DNA of 64,000 bases from a virus (lineage: Duplodnaviria > Caudoviricetes): IMG/VR virus record IMGVR_UViG_3300034095_001474, positions 96,001-160,000 of that record; one strand, written 5' to 3'. Below the pieces are notes generated by a model, which had not been told where the DNA came from, searched no databases, and saw only the letters and a list, made by a program, of their open reading frames with translations. A program made the translations under genes and the position numbers. This document shows positions 11,423 through 40,816 of the stretch, one piece after another (positions within the stretch are counted from its first letter, which is position 1; the number at the start of each line of letters is the position of its first letter).

Positions 11423-11456
11423 TAAAAAAACCCGAAGTCATTTCTGAAATCGGGTT
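11423..11456 (-). terminator. Attenuator terminator of tRNA operon 1
   Basis: AACCCGA...TCGGGTT followed by a U tract. Confidence 0.8.
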
Positions 11457-11481
11457 TGGAATATCTTGTAATTAAGAAACT

Positions 11482-11577
11482 TTATTCTTCATTACTCAAC
11501 AGATATAACACACCCGATACACTCGGCTTTCCGCCTTGCGTTTGTTTCGGTTGATATGTGATAAATGTTGTTTTCAT
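11482..11577 (-). CDS. Leader peptide of tRNA operon 1 (K/T/Y/Q/P/G)
   Basis: MKTTFITYQPKQTQGGKPSVSGVLYLLSNEE; internal ATCGGGT complementary to the terminator 5' arm. Confidence 0.8.
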   Translation of the reverse strand: MKTTFITYQPKQTQGGKPSVSGVLYLLSNEE

Positions 11578-11649
11578 AATTTCTCTTTTTTTTAAATGGG
11601 TTTTTAGCCCGTTGTTTTAATAAATATAACCTTCTTTCTAAAAGTTATA

Positions 11650-11680
11650 CAAATGTACGAACTTTATTTTGATTTGTCAA
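11650..11680 (-). promoter_or_regulatory. Bacteroidota-type promoter for tRNA operon 1, followed by an ACTTTT-N12-ATATTTAT second promoter motif
   Basis: TTGACA...TACATTTG, i.e. TTG-N20-TAnnTTTG. Confidence 0.8.
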
Positions 11681-12113
11681 GTTTTTTCGTAACTTTTTTT
11701 TGTTTTTTTTCAATTTTATTCATTTCATCCCTTATTTCAGCAGCTTTTTCGTATTCTTCTTCTTCCAAAGCTATCGCCAAAAGTTCTTCAAGTGATTTAT
11801 TTTCTTCAAATGGTACTTCAGAAACTTCTAATTTCACCAAATCACCATCTTCTGTGTTCCATATAGACCTTTTGAAATATAAACCATCTGAATGAAATAA
11901 ATGTATTTCATGTGGTTCACCTAATTCATTGTCTATTTGATGTTGTTTATCAACATCAGTTATTTCTGAAAAGTTTTGTAGACTATCTATAATCTTTTTA
12001 GCTTTTTCTTCATAACTGTCATAATTTTTCTCTTTTCTAGGTCTCCCTCTTTTTTTAGACTTTTTATCGTTGTTATTAAAAAAAGCATCAAAAAGTTCAT
12101 CAAATGTTTCCAT
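11664..12113 (-). CDS. UVR (UvrB/C motif) domain protein
   Basis: LEELLAIALEEEEYEKAAEIRDEM. Confidence 0.7.
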   Translation of the reverse strand: METFDELFDAFFNNNDKKSKKRGRPRKEKNYDSYEEKAKKIIDSLQNFSEITDVDKQHQIDNELGEPHEIHLFHSDGLYFKRSIWNTEDGDLVKLEVSEVPFEENKSLEELLAIALEEEEYEKAAEIRDEMNKIEKKQKKVTKKLDKSK

Positions 12114-23211: not shown

Positions 23212-23336
23212 TCGGAAGGGAAGGAATCGAACCTCCAAATAGCAGTCCCTAATAGTAGTTTTATGCTGAACATAATCTTTAAACAGATTAACTTTTTTTT
23301 ACATACTGCCGCCTTTACCAATTTGGCCACCTTCCG
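23212..23336 (-). ncRNA. tRNA with the CAGCA module inserted in a 58-nt anticodon loop (copy D)
   Basis: CGGAAGG/CCTTCCG acceptor, GCC/GGC D stem, GCAGT/ACTGC anticodon stem, insert AAAAAAAAG-TTAATCT-GTTTA-AAGATTA-TGTT-CAGCA. Confidence 0.78.
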
Positions 23337-23350
23337 AATTTAACTTTAAG

Positions 23351-23423
23351 TGGTGAGAGGTGGATTTGAACCACCGACACATGAGTTTTCAGCCCATTGC
23401 TCTACCAACTGAGCTATCTCACC
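23351..23423 (-). tRNA. tRNA-Phe(GAA)
   Basis: ATGGG-CT GAA AA-CTCAT. Confidence 0.9.
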
Positions 23424-23428
23424 ATAAT

Positions 23429-23610
23429 AACCGAAGATAGATTTATGGAATCTTGCTGCAACCATAAACATCTCTTATAGTCTTTATACTATCGTCATAA
23501 ACATTTATGAGCTTCACACACCATTAGAGAGCCGAGTATTTCTACTTATCCTTAGTGCGACACCCTCCGACACGTCTCTCCACGCTTCCTATCCTACGTC
23601 TTTTTCGGTT
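23429..23610 (-). ncRNA. CAGCAA-motif RNA (copy E)
   Basis: AACCGAA/TTCGGTT outer stem; TTTATGG-TTGCAGCAAGATT-CCATAAA hairpin. Confidence 0.4.
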
Positions 23611-23651
23611 ACTTTATTTTTAATACTTCAATGAACTTAATTTTAACACTG

Positions 23652-23682
23652 CAAATGTACAAACAATATTTGATATATGCAA
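23652..23682 (-). promoter_or_regulatory. Bacteroidota-type promoter followed by boxA-like AGTTCATTGAA
   Basis: TTGCAT...TACATTTG. Confidence 0.65.
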
Positions 23683-24077: not shown

Positions 24078-24411
24078 TTTTGTTTTTATCTAATATTTTG
24101 TAGAACCATAATTTTATATATTCTCTTTGTTCATTATATGTTTTTTCATTTAATTGGAAATTGAATACATTTTTAATTTCTTTCTCACAAACTATTTTTC
24201 CATGTTTTATCAACCCAATTGAATTTATTTCACCTACTGGAATTAAAGAATGTGAAAAATCATTAACATCACTATCACCTAGAACAGTTAAAAATAAATT
24301 ATACTTACCTTCTTTTATTTTATTAGTATCAAAATAAGTATTAACGTTATTAATTTCAGATTCTTTAATTATCGGTAGTGAAACACTTAAATATAACCAA
24401 TATATTTTCAT
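24070..24411 (-). CDS. Hypothetical protein
   Basis: Start moved to MKIYWLY because the upstream part overlaps tRNA-Ala. Confidence 0.55.
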   Translation of the reverse strand: MKIYWLYLSVSLPIIKESEINNVNTYFDTNKIKEGKYNLFLTVLGDSDVNDFSHSLIPVGEINSIGLIKHGKIVCEKEIKNVFNFQLNEKTYNEQREYIKLWFYKILDKNKNG

Positions 24412-24427
24412 TTTTAAATAGTTTTTG

Positions 24428-24500
24428 TGGAGATGATGGGACTCGAACCCACATCCTTTACCTTGCAAAGGTAACGCTCAGCCAATTGAGCTACATCCCC
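24428..24500 (-). tRNA. tRNA-Ala(TGC)
   Basis: GGGGATG start, G3-U70, TTACC-TT TGC AA-GGTAA. Confidence 0.93.
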
Positions 24501-24583
24501 ATATAGTTTGGTAACTATTCGCAAGTTTCGAACCTTTTAATAGCTTTATATCCATACCCACCAAACCACTGGGTATTTACAAT

Positions 24584-24657
24584 TGGCGGTCCATGAGGGT
24601 AACGCTCCCTCGTCTTCGCAGTGACAGTGCGAGATTCTACTTTTATACTAATGGACC
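24584..24657 (-). tRNA. tRNA-Asp(GTC), encoded CCA, atypical T loop
   Basis: TCGCA-CT GTC AC-TGCGA, G73, T loop AGCGTTA. Confidence 0.82.
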
Positions 24658-24766
24658 AGTTATCAATTTTCTTTTATTTTCAGTCAGCGGCATTGATTGG
24701 CCTTTCTGTTAATCTTTATTTTCGACCTTTAATCCAACCTTCGTTTAGGTACAAAAAAGTCAATAG

Positions 24767-24838
24767 TACTCCCAGAGAGAATCGAACTCTCATTACCAGA
24801 TTGAAAACCTGGGGTCCTAACCGTTAGACGATAGGAGC
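24767..24838 (-). tRNA. tRNA-Glu(TTC)
   Basis: CCAGG-TT TTC AA-TCTGG. Confidence 0.88.
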
Positions 24839-24909
24839 GTGTTATCTGTCTTTCCAGATTGCCATACTCATACTCTCCAATGAAACGTAACTTTCATTGC
24901 AAGCGTTTG

Positions 24910-24981
24910 TACTGCCACGGAGAATCGAACTCCGATTTTATGGATGAAAACCATAGGTCCTAACCGTTAGACGATGGCAGC
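24910..24981 (-). tRNA. tRNA-Glu(TTC)
   Basis: TATGG-TT TTC AT-CCATA. Confidence 0.88.
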
Positions 24982-24987
24982 ATTTTG

Positions 24988-25060
24988 TGGTGATGGAGGG
25001 ATTCGAACCCCCGACACTCGCATCTTCAATGCGATGCTCTACCAACTGAGCTACATCACC
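24988..25060 (-). tRNA. tRNA-Phe(GAA)
   Basis: TCGCA-TT GAA GA-TGCGA. Confidence 0.92.
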
Positions 25061-25142
25061 GTTATTGTTTTACAAATGTACAAACTCTTTTTCAATTATC
25101 CTAATTTATTTGTACTTTTTTTTTTATTTTTTTTCTATAAAC

Positions 25143-25175
25143 AAAAAAAGCTCTGATTTTTAGGTCAGAGCTTTT
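25143..25175 (-). terminator. Attenuator terminator of tRNA operon 2
   Basis: AAGCTCTGA-CCTAAAAA-TCAGAGCTT plus a U tract. Confidence 0.85.
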
Positions 25176-25198
25176 ATCAATTATGTTAAACGATTACG

Positions 25199-25291
25199 TT
25201 AACTTATGATAATAGATGACCTCCCCAAGCTTTCATCGGCCTCGGCTGCAAAGTTAAATGCAAAATCAAATATGTTAGTTAATGTTTTCAT
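25199..25291 (-). CDS. Leader peptide of tRNA operon 2 (F/D/A/E)
   Basis: MKTLTNIFDFAFNFAAEADESLGRSSIIIS; AGGTCA complementary to TGACCT of the terminator. Confidence 0.8.
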   Translation of the reverse strand: MKTLTNIFDFAFNFAAEADESLGRSSIIIS

Positions 25292-25358
25292 AGTTTTTCT
25301 TTTTATGGGTTTTAACCCGTTGTTTTAATTAAATATACCGTTGTTTCCAAAAGTTATA

Positions 25359-25389
25359 CAAATGTACGACATTTATTCCAATTTGTCAA
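25359..25389 (-). promoter_or_regulatory. Bacteroidota-type promoter for tRNA operon 2
   Basis: TTGACA...TACATTTG, then AACTTTTGGAAA...ATATTTAA. Confidence 0.8.
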
Positions 25390-25413
25390 GTTTTTTTACA
25401 ATTATTTTATTTT

Positions 25414-25755
25414 TTATAAAGAATTTAAGTCTTTTACCTCTTTATGTTTGAATTCAGCACCATCTGTTGTTTTCATAGAAGGTACATATTCATATTCACC
25501 TTGGTACTTTTGTTTTAGATATTGCATCATTGCAGAACCATAACCTTTTCTTCTAAATCCTTCTCTAACTTCTATATGACTTACAGTTAACTCACCATCA
25601 TATAAAACATATTGAACAATACCCATTACATCGCCATTGATATATAAACCCAACTCATAATTATGTTGACCATCATAAGAATCTAAATGTTCTATCTTAT
25701 ATTCAACTTTTGGTTCAATCGATTCTCTTAATATTTGTTTTATAAAATTTTTCAT
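25414..25755 (-). CDS. GNAT-family acetyltransferase with N-terminal IKQILRES
   Basis: IEVREGFRRKGYGSAMM acetyl-CoA motif. Confidence 0.75.
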   Translation of the reverse strand: MKNFIKQILRESIEPKVEYKIEHLDSYDGQHNYELGLYINGDVMGIVQYVLYDGELTVSHIEVREGFRRKGYGSAMMQYLKQKYQGEYEYVPSMKTTDGAEFKHKEVKDLNSL

Positions 25756-25760
25756 CTTTT

Positions 25761-26453
25761 TTATTTATCACCATATTTTCCAGTTATTGCCATTGCCACT
25801 TTTTTTATAAATTCCCTTCTTTGTTCTGGTGTTAACCCAGCACCACCATTTTCATAACTATTAATCATGTTAGCAATAACAATTTCTTTTTTTCTCACCA
25901 TTTGATGCTTGTAATCCAAAACATCTCTCAATCCCATAAACCAAAATCCATCTTCAAATTCTAAATCTGATATTATTTCAGCTTCATTTCTAATTTCAAC
26001 ATTAGCATAAGCACCACCAGCTCTTTTGGGGTCCCAAACAGTAAACGCTTCAATATTCATAGTTGTTAATGGTGGATTTAAGTTATAAGGTCTATATATA
26101 CCATCTTTTAAAAACTCACCCATACCAGCATTTTCCCATATTTCAGTGTTTGGTATTACTATATCTAAATCACCGACACTAGTAGGAAATTCTGGGTCTA
26201 ATTGATTCATTTCATAAACCAACTCTGGATATAAGTATAATCTAGCAGAACCAGCAATAAAATATACACCTCTTTCAGAGTTTGGTTTTATACCAAATTT
26301 ATCAAATATTACAGTTTTTGATTCATGTAAATATTGTGACAATTTAGAATTCATAACCTCATTTAATTGATTACCATCTTTTAGTATTGATTCTAATTTT
26401 GTCCACACATTGTTTTCTTTCAATGCTTCATTAAATAATTCAGATAATTTCAT
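25761..26453 (-). CDS. Possible Pol-beta-family nucleotidyltransferase
   Basis: IAGSARL...GDLDIVI. Confidence 0.5.
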   Translation of the reverse strand: MKLSELFNEALKENNVWTKLESILKDGNQLNEVMNSKLSQYLHESKTVIFDKFGIKPNSERGVYFIAGSARLYLYPELVYEMNQLDPEFPTSVGDLDIVIPNTEIWENAGMGEFLKDGIYRPYNLNPPLTTMNIEAFTVWDPKRAGGAYANVEIRNEAEIISDLEFEDGFWFMGLRDVLDYKHQMVRKKEIVIANMINSYENGGAGLTPEQRREFIKKVAMAITGKYGDK

Positions 26454-26751
26454 ATTCTTTTAATCTTTCTATTGCTTCTTTATCATATTGGTTTTCAATA
26501 GTCAATGATTTAAAAGATAAAAACATATCTTTTGGACTTGGACCTTTTAAGAATAAAAAGTTGTAAGCCGACCATTCACTAGTTAAATAGTAACCATTTT
26601 CATTTTTCATTTTATCAAGCAAACACATTGGGTGTTTATTGATGTATTTCCAATCGTAATCATTACATACTTTACTTACTTTCTTCATAAAGATTGTAAA
26701 CTCAATGTATCTAACTACTAAAACCAAAGATATAAACCAAATCGCTATCAT
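26440..26751 (-). CDS. Hypothetical protein with N-terminal TM
   Basis: ORF track; ATATTTAT upstream. Confidence 0.55.
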   Translation of the reverse strand: MIAIWFISLVLVVRYIEFTIFMKKVSKVCNDYDWKYINKHPMCLLDKMKNENGYYLTSEWSAYNFLFLKGPSPKDMFLSFKSLTIENQYDKEAIERLKEYEII

Positions 26752-26826
26752 AATATAAATATTTAATGTTTATCAAATGTAATGATAATATTTTAATTAT
26801 CCTAATTATTTATGAATTTTTATTTG

Positions 26827-26908
26827 TACAGATAGAGAGACTCGAACTCTCACGCCTTTCGGCAAACGCTTCTAAGGCGTTCGGGTCTACCAATTCCCCC
26901 ATATCTGC
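26827..26908 (-). tRNA. tRNA-Leu(TAG)
   Basis: AACGC-CT TAG AA-GCGTT, long variable arm. Confidence 0.9.
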
Positions 26909-26913
26909 ATTTA

Positions 26914-27014
26914 AGATTGAAGTAGGACTCAAACCTACACAGCAGCCTTTGTTAGACCTCTAATGCTACCACCCCAGGTTATTGAGGCATGTCTATCAAT
27001 TTCATCATTCAACC
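26914..27014 (-). tRNA. Atypical Leu-like tRNA with a very long variable arm and irregular anticodon loop
   Basis: GGTTGAA/TTCAATC, Leu-type D loop, loop AATAACC, about 33-nt extra arm. Confidence 0.45.
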
Positions 27015-27018
27015 TTTG

Positions 27019-27100
27019 TACCGAGAGAGGGAGTCGAACCCTCACGCCCTACGGGCAAGGGATTTTAAGTCCCTCGTGTCTACCATTCCACCACCTCGGC
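27019..27100 (-). tRNA. tRNA-Leu(TAA)
   Basis: AGGGA-CT TAA AA-TCCCT. Confidence 0.93.
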
Positions 27101-27175
27101 ATTTGGATAGACATATGACCGTGTGGTCTATCCCGTCACCGTGACAAATAATTGACTAGTTCATGCATTCGTCAA

Positions 27176-27397
27176 TCAATCATTCATCAACACAATTTGT
27201 GCTTCTTCGAGAGGCATGTGTGTCTGCTGTTTCCATTGGTTGTCTCTGTAGTTCTTCCAACTCTTATGGTCAGAATTTCTATTTCTGTTACAACCTCTGT
27301 GTGGTGCACAAATTGGACACCCCAATATTTCTTCTCTAACAGTCATTTTATACACTCTGCTGTTGTTCGTGTGTTTTTTCTCGTCTTTTTTTCTCAT
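27176..27397 (-). CDS. Small basic protein (CPIC...C, SWKNYR..QWK)
   Basis: ORF track. Confidence 0.55.
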   Translation of the reverse strand: MRKKDEKKHTNNSRVYKMTVREEILGCPICAPHRGCNRNRNSDHKSWKNYRDNQWKQQTHMPLEEAQIVLMND

Positions 27398-27468
27398 AAT
27401 TTAAGTGTTAAGCATGTGCTTCACCTAAATCGAGTTCCTTTTCTAGTTTTCATATTCTTCATTTTTAG

Positions 27469-27541
27469 TAGGGGTAGAGGGATTCGAACCCCCGACCTAT
27501 TGCATGTAAGGCAATTGCTGCTACCGCTGAGCTATACCCCT
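27469..27541 (-). tRNA. tRNA-Val(TAC)
   Basis: ATTGC-CT TAC AT-GCAAT. Confidence 0.92.
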
Positions 27542-27731
27542 ATTTTTCTTTATCTTTAATCATATTTGTTGCACAACACTCATATAGTTCTGCTATGTTT
27601 TTTCTTTTATCACCTGGATATGTTGTTAATCCATCTAACAAACCACTATCAATCCATTTCTGAATCATTTCTTCACGTCTGTTTTTCATACGTTCAATAT
27701 TGTCTGATATTGAGTGACCTAAGTTTTCCAT
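27540..27731 (-). CDS. Small protein resembling the N-terminal segment of a gp23-like major capsid protein
   Basis: KWIDSGLLDGL...NIAELYE. Confidence 0.5.
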   Translation of the reverse strand: MENLGHSISDNIERMKNRREEMIQKWIDSGLLDGLTTYPGDKRKNIAELYECCATNMIKDKEK

Positions 27732-27745
27732 ATTCTTAATTTTTG

Positions 27746-27818
27746 TTGGCCTGGGGAATTTCGAAATCCCGACTTCTGCCATGTAAAAGCAGCACTCTTG
27801 CCTCTGAGTTACAGTCCA
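27746..27818 (-). tRNA. tRNA-Val(TAC)
   Basis: CTGCT-TT TAC AT-GGCAG. Confidence 0.85.
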
Positions 27819-27830
27819 AGGTGATGGGGT

Positions 27831-28094
27831 TTAATTACCCCATCTTATTGTGTTATTTGCAATTGCTTTTCGAATATATCTCATTAGCGTAATTGCTTTA
27901 TATGTTCTTTCAAAGCTTGACTCACCAATATCTTCAGTATTGGTTGTATCAATTGGGAACTCATATTTATACTTATCAGTTTGAACTGTGTAATATAAGT
28001 TACCTTCTTTGTAGTATGCGAACTCTGCTGTCGTTCCTTTTACTATTTCTGTAATCGTTTGTGGTACTACCACTGTTTCGTTAACTGTATCCAT
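27831..28094 (-). CDS. Hypothetical phage protein
   Basis: ORF track. Confidence 0.6.
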   Translation of the reverse strand: MDTVNETVVVPQTITEIVKGTTAEFAYYKEGNLYYTVQTDKYKYEFPIDTTNTEDIGESSFERTYKAITLMRYIRKAIANNTIRWGN

Positions 28095-28404
28095 TTTCTT
28101 TTTTATATTTTTCGTGCATTAAATGTATTGTATGGTAAGGACTTCCACCTTTACCTTCAACTATTTCATTGAAACCGTTTTCTTTGGTTATAACAGATTC
28201 TTCAGCTTTGATAGAACCTCTGAATTTATCACCATAACTTCCAGAAACTGTTTTGGTTGCTGGGTCTATATCACCCCAAGAACTTCTAAAGTTTCTAGGT
28301 TCAATAAATTCAACAAAATACTGCTTACCAGTTTGAATATACGTAATCACTTCTCTTCCAGTTTCATCTCTGTTAACTAGGAAATTCTTTCTAACATTTG
28401 TCAT
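28081..28404 (-). CDS. Hypothetical phage protein
   Basis: ORF track. Confidence 0.6.
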   Translation of the reverse strand: MTNVRKNFLVNRDETGREVITYIQTGKQYFVEFIEPRNFRSSWGDIDPATKTVSGSYGDKFRGSIKAEESVITKENGFNEIVEGKGGSPYHTIHLMHEKYKKENGYS

Positions 28405-28584
28405 AACATTTTTTTTTACTTTCTTTTAGTCTTTAACAACTTTTTTATTATTTTTCCCCAATTGAATGAATTATCCAATTTTACTACATTTGGTCTCATG
28501 ATTTCTCTAGACCCTTTGATATTCCCCGACATCACTTTTTTTCCTTCTTCGTTTCTTTCTGTTTTCATATTTTATTTGTTTTAG

Positions 28585-28657
28585 AACACCTAGTTGGATT
28601 CGAACCAACGCATAACGGTTTTGCAAACCGCCCCCTTAACCACTTGAGCATAGGTGC
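28585..28657 (-). tRNA. tRNA-Cys(GCA)
   Basis: GCGGT-TT GCA AA-ACCGT, U73. Confidence 0.92.
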
Positions 28658-28659
28658 AT

Positions 28660-28692
28660 AAAAAAAGCCCATCTAAATTGTTAGATGGGCTT
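28660..28692 (-). terminator. Attenuator terminator of tRNA operon 3
   Basis: AGCCCATCTAA-CAAT-TTAGATGGGCT plus a U tract. Confidence 0.88.
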
Positions 28693-28721
28693 CATATTGT
28701 TTTTGTTATTTAAGTCAAACA

Positions 28722-28796
28722 CTAACAAACATAGCCCACCCCGTCTACTGCAAGTAAACATAATAAAAGGACGTGTAATGTGTTAATTGTTTTCAT
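28722..28796 (-). CDS. Leader peptide of tRNA operon 3 (L/V/C)
   Basis: MKTINTLHVLLLCLLAVDGVGYVC; GGTGGGCT complementary to AGCCCATC. Confidence 0.8.
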   Translation of the reverse strand: MKTINTLHVLLLCLLAVDGVGYVC

Positions 28797-28846
28797 AATT
28801 TTTCTTTTTGTTTCTATTAAATATACCCCTATTTCTAAAAGTTACA

Positions 28847-28877
28847 CAAATGTACGACATTTATTTCAATTTGTCAA
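28847..28877 (-). promoter_or_regulatory. Bacteroidota-type promoter for tRNA operon 3
   Basis: TTGACA...TACATTTG, then AACTTTTAGAAA...ATATTTAA. Confidence 0.8.
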
Positions 28878-28939
28878 GTCTTTTCGTATTTATTTTTATT
28901 TTTTATTGACTATATGGTAAATATTATCTATAATTGAAT

Positions 28940-29263
28940 ATGGGATATGTTTATTTATTTTTAGAGGTTGATAAAGAAGGTAATGAAGCTTATAAGATTG
29001 GTATTACTAAAAATGAGCCAATCAAACGAGTGAAACAATTGCAAACTGGTAATTCACGCAAATTGACTTACCTTAAATCTTATAAATCAGAAAACTACTT
29101 AAAAGTAGAACGTTTTTTACATAGAAAATATATGATAAAAACTGAAGCTGAAAATGAATGGAGAACTCTTACTGATGAACAAGTTATTTCATTCATTAAA
29201 GATTGTGAGGAAGCTGATGAAAATATCAACTTCCTTTTAAAAAACAATCATTTTTATAAGTGA
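28940..29263 (+). CDS. GIY-YIG/T5orf172-like nuclease
   Basis: GYVY...YKIGITK...RVKQLQTGN...ENEW. Confidence 0.8.
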   Translation: MGYVYLFLEVDKEGNEAYKIGITKNEPIKRVKQLQTGNSRKLTYLKSYKSENYLKVERFLHRKYMIKTEAENEWRTLTDEQVISFIKDCEEADENINFLLKNNHFYK

Positions 29264-30429
29264 TAGAATTCTCTTCTAATCTTAATCAACAACTTGTTAA
29301 CCAATTCTGGGTCAATACCTTTAGGTAAATCAGATTCATCAAAAATCCTATCCATCTCTTTGATTTCAGCTTCTGCTGTATCAATAAGTGAATCTAAATC
29401 AATTTCGCCTCTACGAATAGACAATAGATATTCTCTATCTGGTCGTCTTACAATGATTCCTTCACCACGTCCAATTTCTTGTGACATTCTAATAAGTCTC
29501 ATACAATGCATCATATTCTTACCATCAATTTGTTGTCCATGTTTAACCGTATCAACGTATCTTGCAGTGTTTCTATTCTCAACCCATTCCATATATTCTT
29601 TATAGTCCTTGCAGTGAGCTGTATACCCATCTTTGTTGAACATGATGTTACAGATAGGTGTTTCACCCTTTGGAATACTTGATAAACGTAATTGATTGGA
29701 TTCAGCAGCATTATCAGAACCGCCAACCTTAGCAAGAGCCTTATAACCAAATCCCATCGCTTTACCTTGTGATTTTAACTCATTCTTCATAAATTCTCTT
29801 TGTTCTTCACTAAAAAACTCACCAAAACAAGCAGCCGCAATATTATCGTAAAAAACAGCATATAAATCTTTTGCGTGTGGAACATTGGTAATACCTAAGA
29901 ATTTTTCTTCATAACCCAGACCTTCACACCATTTTTTCCATGGAACTGATTGTTCACCTTGAATAACATAACAGAAATCCAACACATCTTTACGAGTAAC
30001 TGAACCTTGTTCTATGTTTTGTTTCTTGTTAAGACCTCTAGCTTTAGATATTTGTTGTACAGCATACCCACCAAATGAGTTCTTACACCCTTTGGTGATA
30101 AAATCAGCCTTGTGGTCCAATACATATTGAAACAATGGATGTTTTGTAATGATACAATCTTCTGGTGTGTTTAATAACTCCAATACTGTCGGATTTGAGC
30201 TTCCCATTAGTTCTAAGAACCTTTTAAGTTCCCAACCAGTATAATCCTTGTTTACGTTTAATTGTTCAACGTAACCAGTCCCTAAGATGTAATCTTGTGG
30301 TAAGATATATACAAACTTCTTATCAACATCAGATGTTGGAGTTTGTGTTCCATATGCTTGTGACCCAATGATACATTCAAATAGGATAAGCCCGTTTTGT
30401 TCTAAGTATTCGTGTGTAATCTTTTCCAT
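29254..30429 (-). CDS. RlaP-like (Pol-beta) nucleotidyltransferase
   Basis: IGSQAYGT.TPTSDVD, NPTVLELL, DGKNMMHCMRL, LLSIRRG. Confidence 0.8.
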   Translation of the reverse strand: MEKITHEYLEQNGLILFECIIGSQAYGTQTPTSDVDKKFVYILPQDYILGTGYVEQLNVNKDYTGWELKRFLELMGSSNPTVLELLNTPEDCIITKHPLFQYVLDHKADFITKGCKNSFGGYAVQQISKARGLNKKQNIEQGSVTRKDVLDFCYVIQGEQSVPWKKWCEGLGYEEKFLGITNVPHAKDLYAVFYDNIAAACFGEFFSEEQREFMKNELKSQGKAMGFGYKALAKVGGSDNAAESNQLRLSSIPKGETPICNIMFNKDGYTAHCKDYKEYMEWVENRNTARYVDTVKHGQQIDGKNMMHCMRLIRMSQEIGRGEGIIVRRPDREYLLSIRRGEIDLDSLIDTAEAEIKEMDRIFDESDLPKGIDPELVNKLLIKIRREFYHL

Positions 30430-32522: not shown

Positions 32523-33236
32523 TTAAGCTAATCTAAGTGGTCTTAAATAATCTCTAAGAAATGCGTTGACTGGACCACCAATCTTTTCTTCCCAATGTTT
32601 ATAGTTAGAAGCATTCTTTTCTTCCAATTGAGACAAAGCTTTCTCAGATGGTTTATGTCTACTATATGGTATTGTTTCTGGAACAAAGTCTGGATACAAC
32701 GTTCTATTGAATACCCTTTCATCAACCAAGAACACAAAAGCTGTCAATTGGTCACCCAAATCTGGTTCATGGAACCCTTGCAGATATACACCAACTTCAT
32801 GCATCGTATTCATATGAGTATTCAATGTGCCTAATCTTTCTGGGTTGTTGTTGGTAGTACCACCATTAAGAATGATAAAAGTTTTATCTTTGTCAGCCCA
32901 TTTTTTATAGATTGCGTTATGTGGATTAATATCTTCAACAGTTCTACCATAATCAACAACAGCATGTCCAAATTGGATACCTTGTTGAATTGGAGACATA
33001 TTGTAAGGTACAAGACCATACATTCTATATTCCAAATACATTTCAGTTTTACGTGGCATTGAATTAGTTTTTACACGACATAACTCAATACGTCTGTAGA
33101 ATTCTTGTACATCAATTTTCTCTTCATAATAAGAGTCAGTATAAAACGCCCAATCAGTTTCCCATGATGACATATCGATTATTCTCATGTTGGCATCTAA
33201 ACACCAATCATATCCAGTTTTAAGTATTTTTTCCAT
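32523..33236 (-). CDS. PTH2-like peptidyl-tRNA hydrolase domain protein
   Basis: QQGIQFGHA, TFIILNGG, FHEPDLGDQLTA. Confidence 0.6.
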   Translation of the reverse strand: MEKILKTGYDWCLDANMRIIDMSSWETDWAFYTDSYYEEKIDVQEFYRRIELCRVKTNSMPRKTEMYLEYRMYGLVPYNMSPIQQGIQFGHAVVDYGRTVEDINPHNAIYKKWADKDKTFIILNGGTTNNNPERLGTLNTHMNTMHEVGVYLQGFHEPDLGDQLTAFVFLVDERVFNRTLYPDFVPETIPYSRHKPSEKALSQLEEKNASNYKHWEEKIGGPVNAFLRDYLRPLRLA

Positions 33237-34543
33237 TAGTTTCCTATTTCAATTAAGTGTGATATAGTACATTGTTCTGCTCTATATATAATATATTCGT
33301 TATTTCTTAAATCAGCACCACCTTTAGCAAACACACTGTTATAACCTTCATTGTCCATTACTTTTTGTGATAATTTATAACAGCTAGAATCGTGATGCAG
33401 TATTTCTTTTTCTTTCCCTAAATGAACATCATACAATGCCAAATAAGCTTTATTGTCACCACCATTAGCCCAATAAGAACCTCTCAATGATGAGTAACCA
33501 ATTGATTTCTGTGCTTTATCAGCAAAATAGATACCATCACCAAACATTGAACCAGTATGTACTGCACCAGAAGGTCTGATAAGCAATCCACTTTGCATAA
33601 TGTTAAACCAGTTCTCATTTCTGGAACCATGCCAGTAAAGTCTTTTCTTTTTAACGTCAGCTTTCTCCAAGTTTTTATCAAATTTAACTTGTGTTTTGTT
33701 ATTTCTAACTTTGAACACTTTTTTGATTTGATTAACATTTGAACCCATCAATTTTTTAATAAGTGCTAACATTTCAGTATCGTTTTCAACTTCAACTGTT
33801 AATCCCATTTGGTCAAGGATAGTTACATCTTCAACAACTTCTTCTTCACCTTTGGCTTCAGCTTCAGCAGCTTTTTTAGCAGCATCTCTTTGTTGTTTAA
33901 TCAACTCAACTTGTCCAGCCATCGTATCCAATGCTGATTGTTCATTATCAATCAACCTTTGAGCACTAGTCAAACTACCATCATCCTCAATACCACTAAA
34001 CAAGTAGTCTTTAACATTATCCATTCTTCTTGGGATAATAGTATATAATTTCAATAACATATCATTGATATGTTTGATATCAACACCTATTTGTATCAAC
34101 CCACTAATATTGGTAATAACCTCTTGTGCAGCTCTTACTTGTTGTTCAGATACAGCTTCTTGAGTTACCTTATAGTTTCTTTGGATTGATTTGTTAGCAA
34201 ATGACATTAAATCATCAATCAATTTCTTAACAATATCATCTTTTATGTTCTCAACCTTGTTATCCAATGGTTTTGATTCATCAATAACTGGTTCAGCTAG
34301 TAAATCAGTAACATCAGTATAACCTTTTGTTTTGGATAATTTCTGTTTCAACACACTATCCCACTTGCTGCTAGGTTTATATTCTTCAACCAAAGACTTA
34401 CCAACACGTCCATATTCACATTTGATACGTCCATCTGTCAATTCCTCCATAATATAAACCTTGTTACTGTTTCCAGTACTGCCATTATCCACTGATACGT
34501 GGATAAGTTTGGCATATCTTAAACCATTTTCCTTTGTTATCAT
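33236..34543 (-). CDS. Poly(ADP-ribose) polymerase-like protein (WGR + regulatory + catalytic domains)
   Basis: NKVYIM...YGRVG; YTIIPR; WHGSR...GSMFGDGIYFAD...KSIGY...NEYIIY (H-Y-E triad). Confidence 0.9.
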   Translation of the reverse strand: MITKENGLRYAKLIHVSVDNGSTGNSNKVYIMEELTDGRIKCEYGRVGKSLVEEYKPSSKWDSVLKQKLSKTKGYTDVTDLLAEPVIDESKPLDNKVENIKDDIVKKLIDDLMSFANKSIQRNYKVTQEAVSEQQVRAAQEVITNISGLIQIGVDIKHINDMLLKLYTIIPRRMDNVKDYLFSGIEDDGSLTSAQRLIDNEQSALDTMAGQVELIKQQRDAAKKAAEAEAKGEEEVVEDVTILDQMGLTVEVENDTEMLALIKKLMGSNVNQIKKVFKVRNNKTQVKFDKNLEKADVKKKRLYWHGSRNENWFNIMQSGLLIRPSGAVHTGSMFGDGIYFADKAQKSIGYSSLRGSYWANGGDNKAYLALYDVHLGKEKEILHHDSSCYKLSQKVMDNEGYNSVFAKGGADLRNNEYIIYRAEQCTISHLIEIGN

Positions 34544-39631: not shown

Positions 39632-40756
39632 TTACAACATTTTATATAATAATTTATCATCGTATTCAAACATAAAGTCTTCAACGCTATTTATTTTGTA
39701 TTGAGCCAATCCGAAATACAATCCAGTGAATTGTTTTACTTCATATTTATCACATACTTCAAATACAGCAGCTGCATACTTTTTTTGTTCTTCTTTTGTG
39801 ATGTTTTTTGGTCTAAGCAATTGTAACTCAACCCAAATAACGTTCAACTTACCAACCAACTCATCGTATCCTTCTTTAAGACGATATAGTTCTTCTGTTC
39901 TTTCTGGGAAAGTAGCAGCAAACTCTTCTATCTCGTTGGTTTTTACGATTGTTAATATGTTGTGTTCAGCAGTTTTACCTTTTAAGTGGTGAACTGCAAC
40001 ATAAGCTGGGTTTTTCACCTTCACACGATTGTCGTTACCATCACGTACTACATATCCTTCTTCAGACCATGGCATGTTTTCAAATGTTTTCAACAAGTGA
40101 CCAACATTTGATGCGTTGATATCAAAAGACTTTACCAATGGTATACCTATTGACACAGCAGCCATTTCTAAGTCTTTTCCAGAAAACTCAACTAGTGTTT
40201 CTCTGTCTCTCACAGTCAATAGTGTTGCTGATGATTCACCATGTGGTTTTACCACTATGTTGTATGGTGTAGTCAACTCAAATACGTATATAAGGTCTTT
40301 GTTCAGTAAACATTCATTGAATGTGTATTTGTTATTTACAGTTTCCCAAAACAAGTCATTAAATGTTGTTCCGTTTTTGTTGTTCACTTCACCTTCACCT
40401 TCAGCAGTACCAGTAGTAGCTGCAAACCATTTTTCTTCATACCAATCCCAATAGACTTGTATCATAGTACCATCCAATTTTTCAAGTACATGTGCAGTAT
40501 TCCAATCTATCTTTGCAGCGTTTCCTTCTTCAGAATTGAAGAATTTACGGAATGCCAACGACATTACGTTCCAAGTATTTTTTTCAAGGATAATTCCACG
40601 ACAATCTTGCATTTCTGGCAAGGCCATAAGTGTTGGTGACACCAATTGGTCATACTTAAAAAGTATTTTACCATCATACTCTCTAGTTTTTAAACTAAAA
40701 GCTTTGATTGTTTTTTCTAATCCGTGTTTTATTAAGTAATTTTGTATCGCTAACAT
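39632..40756 (-). CDS. RNA ligase, T4 Rnl1-like
   Basis: RKFFN, EKLDGT, FEL...NIVV, EGYVV, RVKVKNPAY. Confidence 0.88.
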   Translation of the reverse strand: MLAIQNYLIKHGLEKTIKAFSLKTREYDGKILFKYDQLVSPTLMALPEMQDCRGIILEKNTWNVMSLAFRKFFNSEEGNAAKIDWNTAHVLEKLDGTMIQVYWDWYEEKWFAATTGTAEGEGEVNNKNGTTFNDLFWETVNNKYTFNECLLNKDLIYVFELTTPYNIVVKPHGESSATLLTVRDRETLVEFSGKDLEMAAVSIGIPLVKSFDINASNVGHLLKTFENMPWSEEGYVVRDGNDNRVKVKNPAYVAVHHLKGKTAEHNILTIVKTNEIEEFAATFPERTEELYRLKEGYDELVGKLNVIWVELQLLRPKNITKEEQKKYAAAVFEVCDKYEVKQFTGLYFGLAQYKINSVEDFMFEYDDKLLYKML

Positions 40757-40816
40757 AATATAATTTTTTAATGTTAGACAAAAGTACAAAATAAAAATGA
40801 AATAACAAAATAAAAC

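Follow-up and report, generated by a model that had tools for sequence, protein, structure and literature searches.

Within the 64,000-nucleotide stretch of viral DNA analyzed here (the window), a minus-strand cassette probably acts as a multivalent, ribosome-mediated transcription attenuator that gates a run of Phe-Glu-Glu-Asp-Ala tRNA genes and matches their transcription to decoding demand. In this cassette (cassette 2 of four paralogs), we observe the expected sequence elements and two alternative folds, all of them conserved and covarying in relatives, and a match between leader codons and downstream tRNAs. The initial annotation had proposed the same reading; every element that it named is present at the position it gave, on the minus strand, and our analysis supports the reading and adds to it a matrix of codons against tRNAs, tRNA linkage in relatives, covariation and a counterpart in phage phi17:2.

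Promoter, leader ORF and tRNA genes of cassette 2

The window is AT-rich (32% G+C) and contains 34 tRNA or tmRNA genes identified by ARAGORN, all on the minus strand, together with four further minus-strand tRNAs identified by Rfam only. The gated genes occupy 24427..25060 (−) (ARAGORN and Rfam) and comprise tRNA-Phe(GAA) at 25060-24987, two copies of tRNA-Glu(TTC) at 24981-24909 and 24838-24766, tRNA-Asp(GTC) at 24657-24587 and tRNA-Ala(TGC) at 24500-24427. ARAGORN calls all of these except tRNA-Asp, which is matched by Rfam only (44.8 bits) and has a T-loop that reads AGCGTTA in place of the usual TTCGAAT-like loop. A search of GenBank phages with 24300-29000 returned the tRNA genes as the sole matches and no close relative, an IMG/VR scan with our first promoter pattern gave no match, and the neighboring 230-aa protein had no relatives in IMG/VR.

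An RlaP RNA-repair nucleotidyltransferase, a T4 Rnl1-type RNA ligase, the head domain of a CCA-adding enzyme and a PARP catalytic domain (Pfam; 29254-30429, 39632-40789, 52437-53552 and 33236-34543, all on the minus strand) lie among the tRNA clusters, and together these genes look like a tRNA maintenance island. An ORF at 47400-47700 (−), among the tRNA genes of the His/Asn cluster, shows HNH-type CxxC ... CANCH ... H motifs by eye and is probably a homing endonuclease. Downstream of a TACATTTG promoter at 23659 (−) come ~235 nt without an ORF and then a second tRNA-Phe (23423-23350; region 23212-23660). This tRNA adjoins a 125-nt Rfam tRNA match (23336-23212) in which there must be an intron or insertion of ~50 nt.

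Bacteroidota-type promoters have a consensus of TTG at −33 and TAnnTTTG at −7, spaced by about 19-20 nt. The promoter of cassette 2, P1 (25359..25410, −; defined by box counts and alignment), consists of an A/T-rich upstream stretch, TTGACA (25389-25384) and the −7 box TACATTTG (25366-25359); it can be read as TTGACA, 17 nt and TACATT or, equally, as TTG, 20 nt and TACATTTG. With both elements at the right spacing, P1 has the sequence of a strong promoter of this type. The box occurs 24 times in the window against 6.6 expected, with 22 of the 24 occurrences on the minus strand, and is therefore a genuine promoter box of the Bacteroidota type. Four small ORFs (boxes at 11657, 25366, 28854 and 49075), which are the four leaders discussed below, are preceded by a sub-class whose upstream half is conserved; their promoters are almost the same in alignment. 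One promoter class, which combines an A/T-rich upstream stretch with a TTGACA-like −33 element (degenerate at some sites) and TCGTACATTTG, is found on the minus strand at 11657, 22788, 25366, 28854, 49075, 56981 and 58383, ahead of the tmRNA gene, the four leaders and further RNA units. The class to which P1 belongs looks like the stable-RNA promoter of the phage.

The 5′ UTR (25292..25352, −), which is conserved among the paralogous leaders (alignment A1 and fold), spans ~60 nt and contains a small predicted hairpin, GGGTTAAAACCC, at 25318-25307, followed by an A-rich stretch ahead of the AUG; our guess is that transcription from P1 starts at its upstream edge. The leader ORF (25291..25199, −) has 30 codons and a TAA stop (25201-25199) and encodes MKTLTNIFDFAFNFAAEADESLGRSSIIIS. 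Its control codons, 8-20 (FDFAFNFAAEADE; 25270-25232, −), comprise four Phe, four Ala, two Asp, two Glu and one Asn, so that 12 of the 13 belong to the set {F,D,A,E}, the same count at the same coordinates as in the initial annotation. Given a background frequency of 0.23 for F+E+D+A in the long ORFs of the window, the 12 matches among the 14 residues at positions 7-20 have a binomial P of 1.4e-6, and at least 12 of 13 residues from this set are found in only six of 59,037 stop-free 13-aa windows in six frames. The single exception, the Asn codon AAC (25255-25253), is a 3-nt insertion peculiar to the window: none of the 20 other leader versions has the insertion, and in two further samples, from lake and sediment, the majority of contigs lack the three bases at 25253. 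Because the control codons are interleaved, with no long runs of a single codon, sensitivity to any one tRNA may be modest. A search of PHROGs with the four leader peptides of the window gave no matching family.

Alternative folds in cassette 2 and its homologs

Pattern scans of IMG/VR and metagenomes identified relatives of the cassette 2 leader in lake, salt-marsh and sediment samples, some of them on contigs of 200-360 kb. These amount to 21 distinct versions of the F/D/A/E leader on phage and metagenome contigs, in which frame, length and stop position are kept and the sole indel is of 3 nt. Wherever a locus extends to at least ~600 nt downstream, Phe, Glu, Asp and Ala tRNAs come after the leader. 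Alignments A2 and A3 show only silent changes in the control codons, or swaps between members of the set (Ala GCC to Glu GAG), and codons 2-6 and 20-30 are variable; the invariance of the control peptide is partly built in, because most homologs were found with a pattern that demanded it, and linkage to tRNA genes was not demanded. Some of the homologous clusters contain an extra tRNA (His, Asn, Met or one with a TCA anticodon) that has no counterpart in the leader codons. The TCA-anticodon tRNA is present in two F/D/A/E clusters (L041 and L049; 'SeC' in ARAGORN) and may be an opal-reading tRNA in jumbo-phage contigs. The homolog L023 has a tRNA-Met (CAT) gene after the P1-type promoter and ahead of the leader ORF (region 2595-2770); being upstream of the leader ORF, this tRNA would be made regardless of the gate.

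Two folds compete downstream of the control codons. The intrinsic terminator (25175..25143, −), identified by folding and conservation, has an 11-bp stem (25175..25146), an 8-nt loop and seven U residues, with a predicted energy of −13.5 kcal/mol (z = −4.8); its stem carries compensatory changes in L023 (CT/AG to TA/TA). When the transcript is folded only up to the terminator loop, with the 3′ arm not yet made, a 61-nt composite hairpin of 21 bp appears instead (25222-25162, −; −15.1 kcal/mol, z = −4.0), and we assign this hairpin as the antiterminator from its fold, covariation and a chimera test. Its outer helix pairs AGGUCA of codons 24-25 (25222-25217) with UGACCU (25167-25162), a segment that straddles the end of the terminator 5′ arm and the loop. 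The initial annotation had noted this pairing as a six-base-pair contact; the pairing is real, but folds and covariation indicate that the helix does not stand bare and instead closes the 21-bp composite hairpin. It stacks on two further helices, the inner hairpin bearing the leader stop codon in its 5′ arm, and together with a 2-bp helix (CU:AG) it sequesters the terminator 5′ arm. The mutually exclusive part of the two folds amounts to about 8-9 bp. A different 5′ arm that would pair with the terminator 3′ arm, AAAGCTTGGG, was noticed by eye and dropped in favor of the composite hairpin, which has folding and covariation behind it.

At equilibrium, the full RNA favors the terminator plus the inner hairpin (−19.1 kcal/mol) over the antiterminator (−15.1 kcal/mol), so antitermination has to be under kinetic control, as it is in the classical trp operon case. 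Folding predicted no anti-antiterminator of the 1:2 type for the cassette 2 leader, and an untranslated leader would therefore read through. To represent the ribosome in silico, we masked 30 nt of the transcript. With the A site at codons 8-18 the antiterminator is left intact, covering of it starts from codon 20, and with the A site at the stop codon the inner stems are melted, leaving the 6-bp outer helix alone.

The eight-sequence alignment A2 is too uniform for covariation to be scored across the whole antiterminator, and a wider set of homologs was therefore needed. Across 16 homologs, 90.6% of cells in the outer helix hold standard pairs, as against 19-40% when the partner strand is slid; A-U is replaced by G-C or U-A at both ends, both sides are changed in six cells, and none of 500 shuffles matched the observed covariation score. 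Native leader/terminator pairs dock with −12.1 kcal/mol compared with −9.2 ± 0.6 kcal/mol for swapped pairs, and in the terminator-arm chimera test none of 20,000 permutations reached the native value (P < 5e-5, a statistic that ignores the relatedness of the homologs). Truncated folds yield an antiterminator in all 21 leader versions, and each of these folds pairs 6-10 bases of the terminator 5′ arm. In L039, where the terminator loop is altered, the pairing now comes from another leader segment, ACUGUCA, the strand that pairs with the arm having moved to codons 27-29.

Second promoter, paralogous cassettes and phage phi17:2

A second −7 box with a poor −33 element past the terminator had been flagged in the initial annotation as a possible source of basal bypass transcription. 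We located it as P2 (25073..25104, −; box match and homologs), which combines a perfect TACATTTG at 25080-25073 with TTAG at −33 (25104-25101) and lies downstream of the terminator, 13 nt upstream of tRNA-Phe. P2 is conserved in 11 of the 21 leader versions, and in three of them (L014, L028 and L007) its counterpart has TTTG at −33 with proper spacing. Three other versions have long gaps in which none was found, and the remaining seven have no room for it: there the first tRNA begins 8-15 nt past the T-run with no promoter between. L023, whose tRNA-Phe is seen by Rfam only, is one of these seven. P2 is conserved in one sub-lineage, where it probably provides basal, ungated expression, in line with the role first proposed for it. 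Because seven homologs have no room for P2, we regard the gate as the ancestral design and P2 as an added bypass, and the gate alone therefore feeds the tRNAs in several relatives. In the strain represented by the window, P2 could be the source of most tRNA transcripts.

The sequence of the cassette is present in many lake-water DNA runs. In a lake metatranscriptome, a contig covering 24981-25190 bridges the terminator and tRNA-Phe and starts upstream of P2 (one run, depth 2.2, with DNA carry-over possible), and a contig from the same library (28547-28741) bridges the terminator of the Cys cassette and tRNA-Cys. These contigs fit readthrough from P1, if weakly. In metatranscriptome run X24, no contig covered the leader ORF (25242-25398) or the neighboring protein genes; because transcript starts, ends and levels cannot be read from contigs, we draw no conclusion from this gap.

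The window contains three further leader cassettes, identified by paralogy at 11424-11681, 28661-28878 and 48864-49098 (−). The four leaders share a common UTR and an MKT or MRT start and diverge afterwards. The tRNA sets behind them, in order, are {PQYTGK}, {FEDA}, {CVL} and {HWSIMNR}, which jointly cover all 20 amino acids. Residues 7-20 of each leader fall in its own set at 12/14, 12/14, 10/14 and 14/14 positions (binomial P of 5e-5, 1.4e-6, 3.8e-6 and 4e-8) and in any other set at 0-2 of 14. A full TAnnTTTG box between terminator and first tRNA is found in cassette 2 only; at the place of P2, cassette 1 has the weaker look-alike TACATATA. Cassette 1 also appears, from its predicted structure, to use classical 1:2 pairing. 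In L006, L017 and L030 (IMGVR_UViG_3300033984_000473, 232,931 bp), a 36-aa basic ORF, MATHKRVAHTRV..., stands before a Ser-His-His-Trp-Ile-Met-Asn cluster; it follows the same promoter and UTR, replaces the usual His/Ser/Asn/Trp/Arg leader and may itself be a leader.

An independent case is the cultured Cellulophaga phage phi17:2 (NC_021798.1; locus L033), whose three leaders follow the same design although its tRNAs are partitioned differently. Their leader/terminator cassettes lie on the minus strand of the locus at 7204-7080, 6244-6106 and 4685-4536; one of them overlaps an annotated 'hypothetical protein', gp077, and two are unannotated. Leader 1 (MKIQRLHLQELEQP...) precedes Pro, Glu, Gln, His, Leu, Leu and Arg(ACG) tRNAs and matches them at 11/14 positions, leader 2 (...TKTGITVIDKTKGARAY...) precedes Ala, Lys, Ile, Gly, Met, Asp, Thr, Val, Arg(TCT) and Met (11/14), and leader 3 (MKTNYCTYNNSNWSFSY...) precedes Tyr, Ser, Asn, Trp and Phe (12/14). 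The match of leader 2 rises to 14/14 once tRNA-Lys is counted. This tRNA-Lys (TTT; L033 5872-5944, −), to which the Lys codons in the leader (leader b) had pointed, is an ARAGORN match absent from the GenBank annotation of phi17:2. The correspondence extends to Arg isoacceptors, with CGT in leader 1 accompanying tRNA-Arg(ACG) and AGA in leader 2 accompanying tRNA-Arg(TCT). In predicted folds, the terminator 5′ arm is taken up by a hairpin in each of the three cassettes, and the leader stop codon lies within that hairpin. Cassette 2 shares its promoter class with the other three cassettes of the window and with the phi17:2 leaders, and in all of them a leader ORF whose control codons match the tRNAs behind is followed by antiterminator and terminator.

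Proposed mechanism and comparison with known systems

From these features we infer that the leader ORF is translated, that ribosomes stall within it and that the two folds switch in vivo. In the mechanism that we propose, P1 would transcribe the leader and its ORF would be translated. With Phe-, Asp-, Ala- and Glu-tRNAs plentiful, the ribosome would reach the stop codon and, because that codon lies inside the antiterminator hairpin, would melt the inner stems; the terminator 5′ arm would be freed, the terminator would form and RNA polymerase would halt at about 25143. Should any of the four decoding activities run short, the ribosome would stall at codons 8-19 and leave codon 24 onward free, the antiterminator would zip up as the terminator 5′ arm emerges, and polymerase would continue into tRNA-Phe-Glu-Glu-Asp-Ala. 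The new tRNAs would relieve the stall and close a negative feedback loop. P2 would set the floor, a basal, ungated supply in the lineage of the window.

We weighed three other readings. One of them, which we consider improbable, retains a translated switch but takes its main product to be the terminated leader RNA or peptide, acting in trans in the manner of rnTrpL/peTrpL, or else takes the cassette to be a timing device in which readthrough is the default early and is shut off once translation is efficient; neither form senses demand for four tRNAs. Attenuator-derived small RNAs and peptides with trans roles are known (PMC6614838, PMC7298713), and the predicted readthrough of an untranslated leader would suit this reading, which nevertheless leaves unexplained why the codons of each leader track its own tRNA set and why these sets differ between phages along with the tRNA partition. 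Less probable again is a leader RNA that senses tRNAs without translation, its tandem codons serving as T-box-like specifiers that pair with the anticodons of uncharged tRNAs and stabilize the antiterminator. The anticodons of the tRNAs behind the leader complement its codons, in phi17:2 down to the isoacceptor, but the codons sit in one conserved frame that runs from an AUG with an A-rich leader to a stop at a fixed position and has a 3-nt change as its only indel; the stop codon always falls inside the antiterminator, where it is relevant only if a ribosome arrives, and no T-box or other riboswitch was matched even at E <= 10. Least probable of all is that the ORF is a free-standing gene for a small peptide, served by a promoter and terminator of its own, with the tRNAs transcribed from P2 only and the F/D/A/E bias coincidental, a reading that draws on the strong terminator and on the perfect, 11/21-conserved P2 box just before tRNA-Phe but is opposed by the match of each of the four window leaders and three phi17:2 leaders to its own tRNA set, by the seven homologs without P2, by the covariation of the leader strand with the terminator arm, by the lack of a PHROG family for the peptide and by the RNA-library contig that bridges the terminator.

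Phage tRNA genes are usually viewed as fixed supplements to codon usage or as replacements for cleaved host tRNAs. A leader-peptide attenuator placed before tRNA genes would form a feedback loop that lets the ribosome gauge decoding capacity and has the decoders themselves as its product; it would carry a textbook mechanism over to phages and to targets of a new class, and it predicts which tRNAs are co-regulated. More tentatively, and with considerable doubt, we suggest that tRNA-rich Bacteroidota phages possess a demand-driven circuit of tRNA supply, in which a few multivalent attenuators cover the 20 amino acids and each gauges ribosomal decoding of one codon set and switches on exactly its matching cluster. 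Because the signal would be decoding and not the level of an amino acid, such a circuit would also register when particular host tRNAs are lost, as they might be to anticodon nucleases, and answer with replacement tRNAs. If so, this answer would stand beside the phage genes for an Rnl1-like RNA ligase, an RlaP-like protein and a CCA-adding enzyme. Cellulophaga baltica infected by phage phi17:2 or phi4:1 offers the same design in culture.

Full-text literature on leader-peptide or attenuator control of tRNA genes and on phage tRNAs contained no report of such an arrangement, in a search whose coverage excluded most subscription journals, and the full-text literature on leader-peptide attenuation in Bacteroidetes held nothing directly usable. 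The terms 'tRNA gene' and 'tRNA operon' are absent from a genome-wide survey of attenuators (PMC2965389). Against Rfam, the Thr_leader (RF00506) and Phe_leader (RF01859) models score 23.2 and 16.3 bits, compared with a gathering score of 55, and the matches cover the terminator region only; by sequence, cassette 2 belongs to neither family. A covariance-model search of cassette 2 for T-boxes gave no match at the gathering score or at E <= 10.

T-box riboswitches bind uncharged tRNA directly and need no ribosome. Cassette 2 resembles them in that readthrough of a terminator upstream of translation-related genes would be set by the state of specific tRNAs, but it differs in having a conserved ORF and no match to the T-box covariance model. 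In the pheST attenuator of Escherichia coli, the leader peptide pheM contains Phe codons and the signal is charged tRNA-Phe. Cassette 2, like pheST, would place a component of the translation apparatus under attenuation by leader-peptide Phe codons; the pheST attenuator, in contrast to cassette 2, regulates a synthetase and not a tRNA, and it senses a single amino acid.

The closest parallels in design are the multivalent attenuators of enterobacteria, namely thr, with Thr and Ile codons, and ilvGMEDA, with Ile, Val and Leu codons (general model in PMC1183508). Like these, cassette 2 combines a short leader ORF containing codons for several amino acids with an intrinsic terminator and a competing antiterminator, and the position of the ribosome would decide the fold. 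Unlike them, it interleaves codons for four amino acids, places its stop codon inside the antiterminator and has no predicted 1:2 pause or anti-antiterminator hairpin. It also belongs to a phage of Bacteroidota-type hosts, and the genes that it would gate are five tRNA genes, outside the classical scope of genes for amino-acid biosynthesis or aminoacyl-tRNA synthetases. The proposed mechanism is a textbook one, and what is new is its target, tRNA genes, and its setting, a phage.
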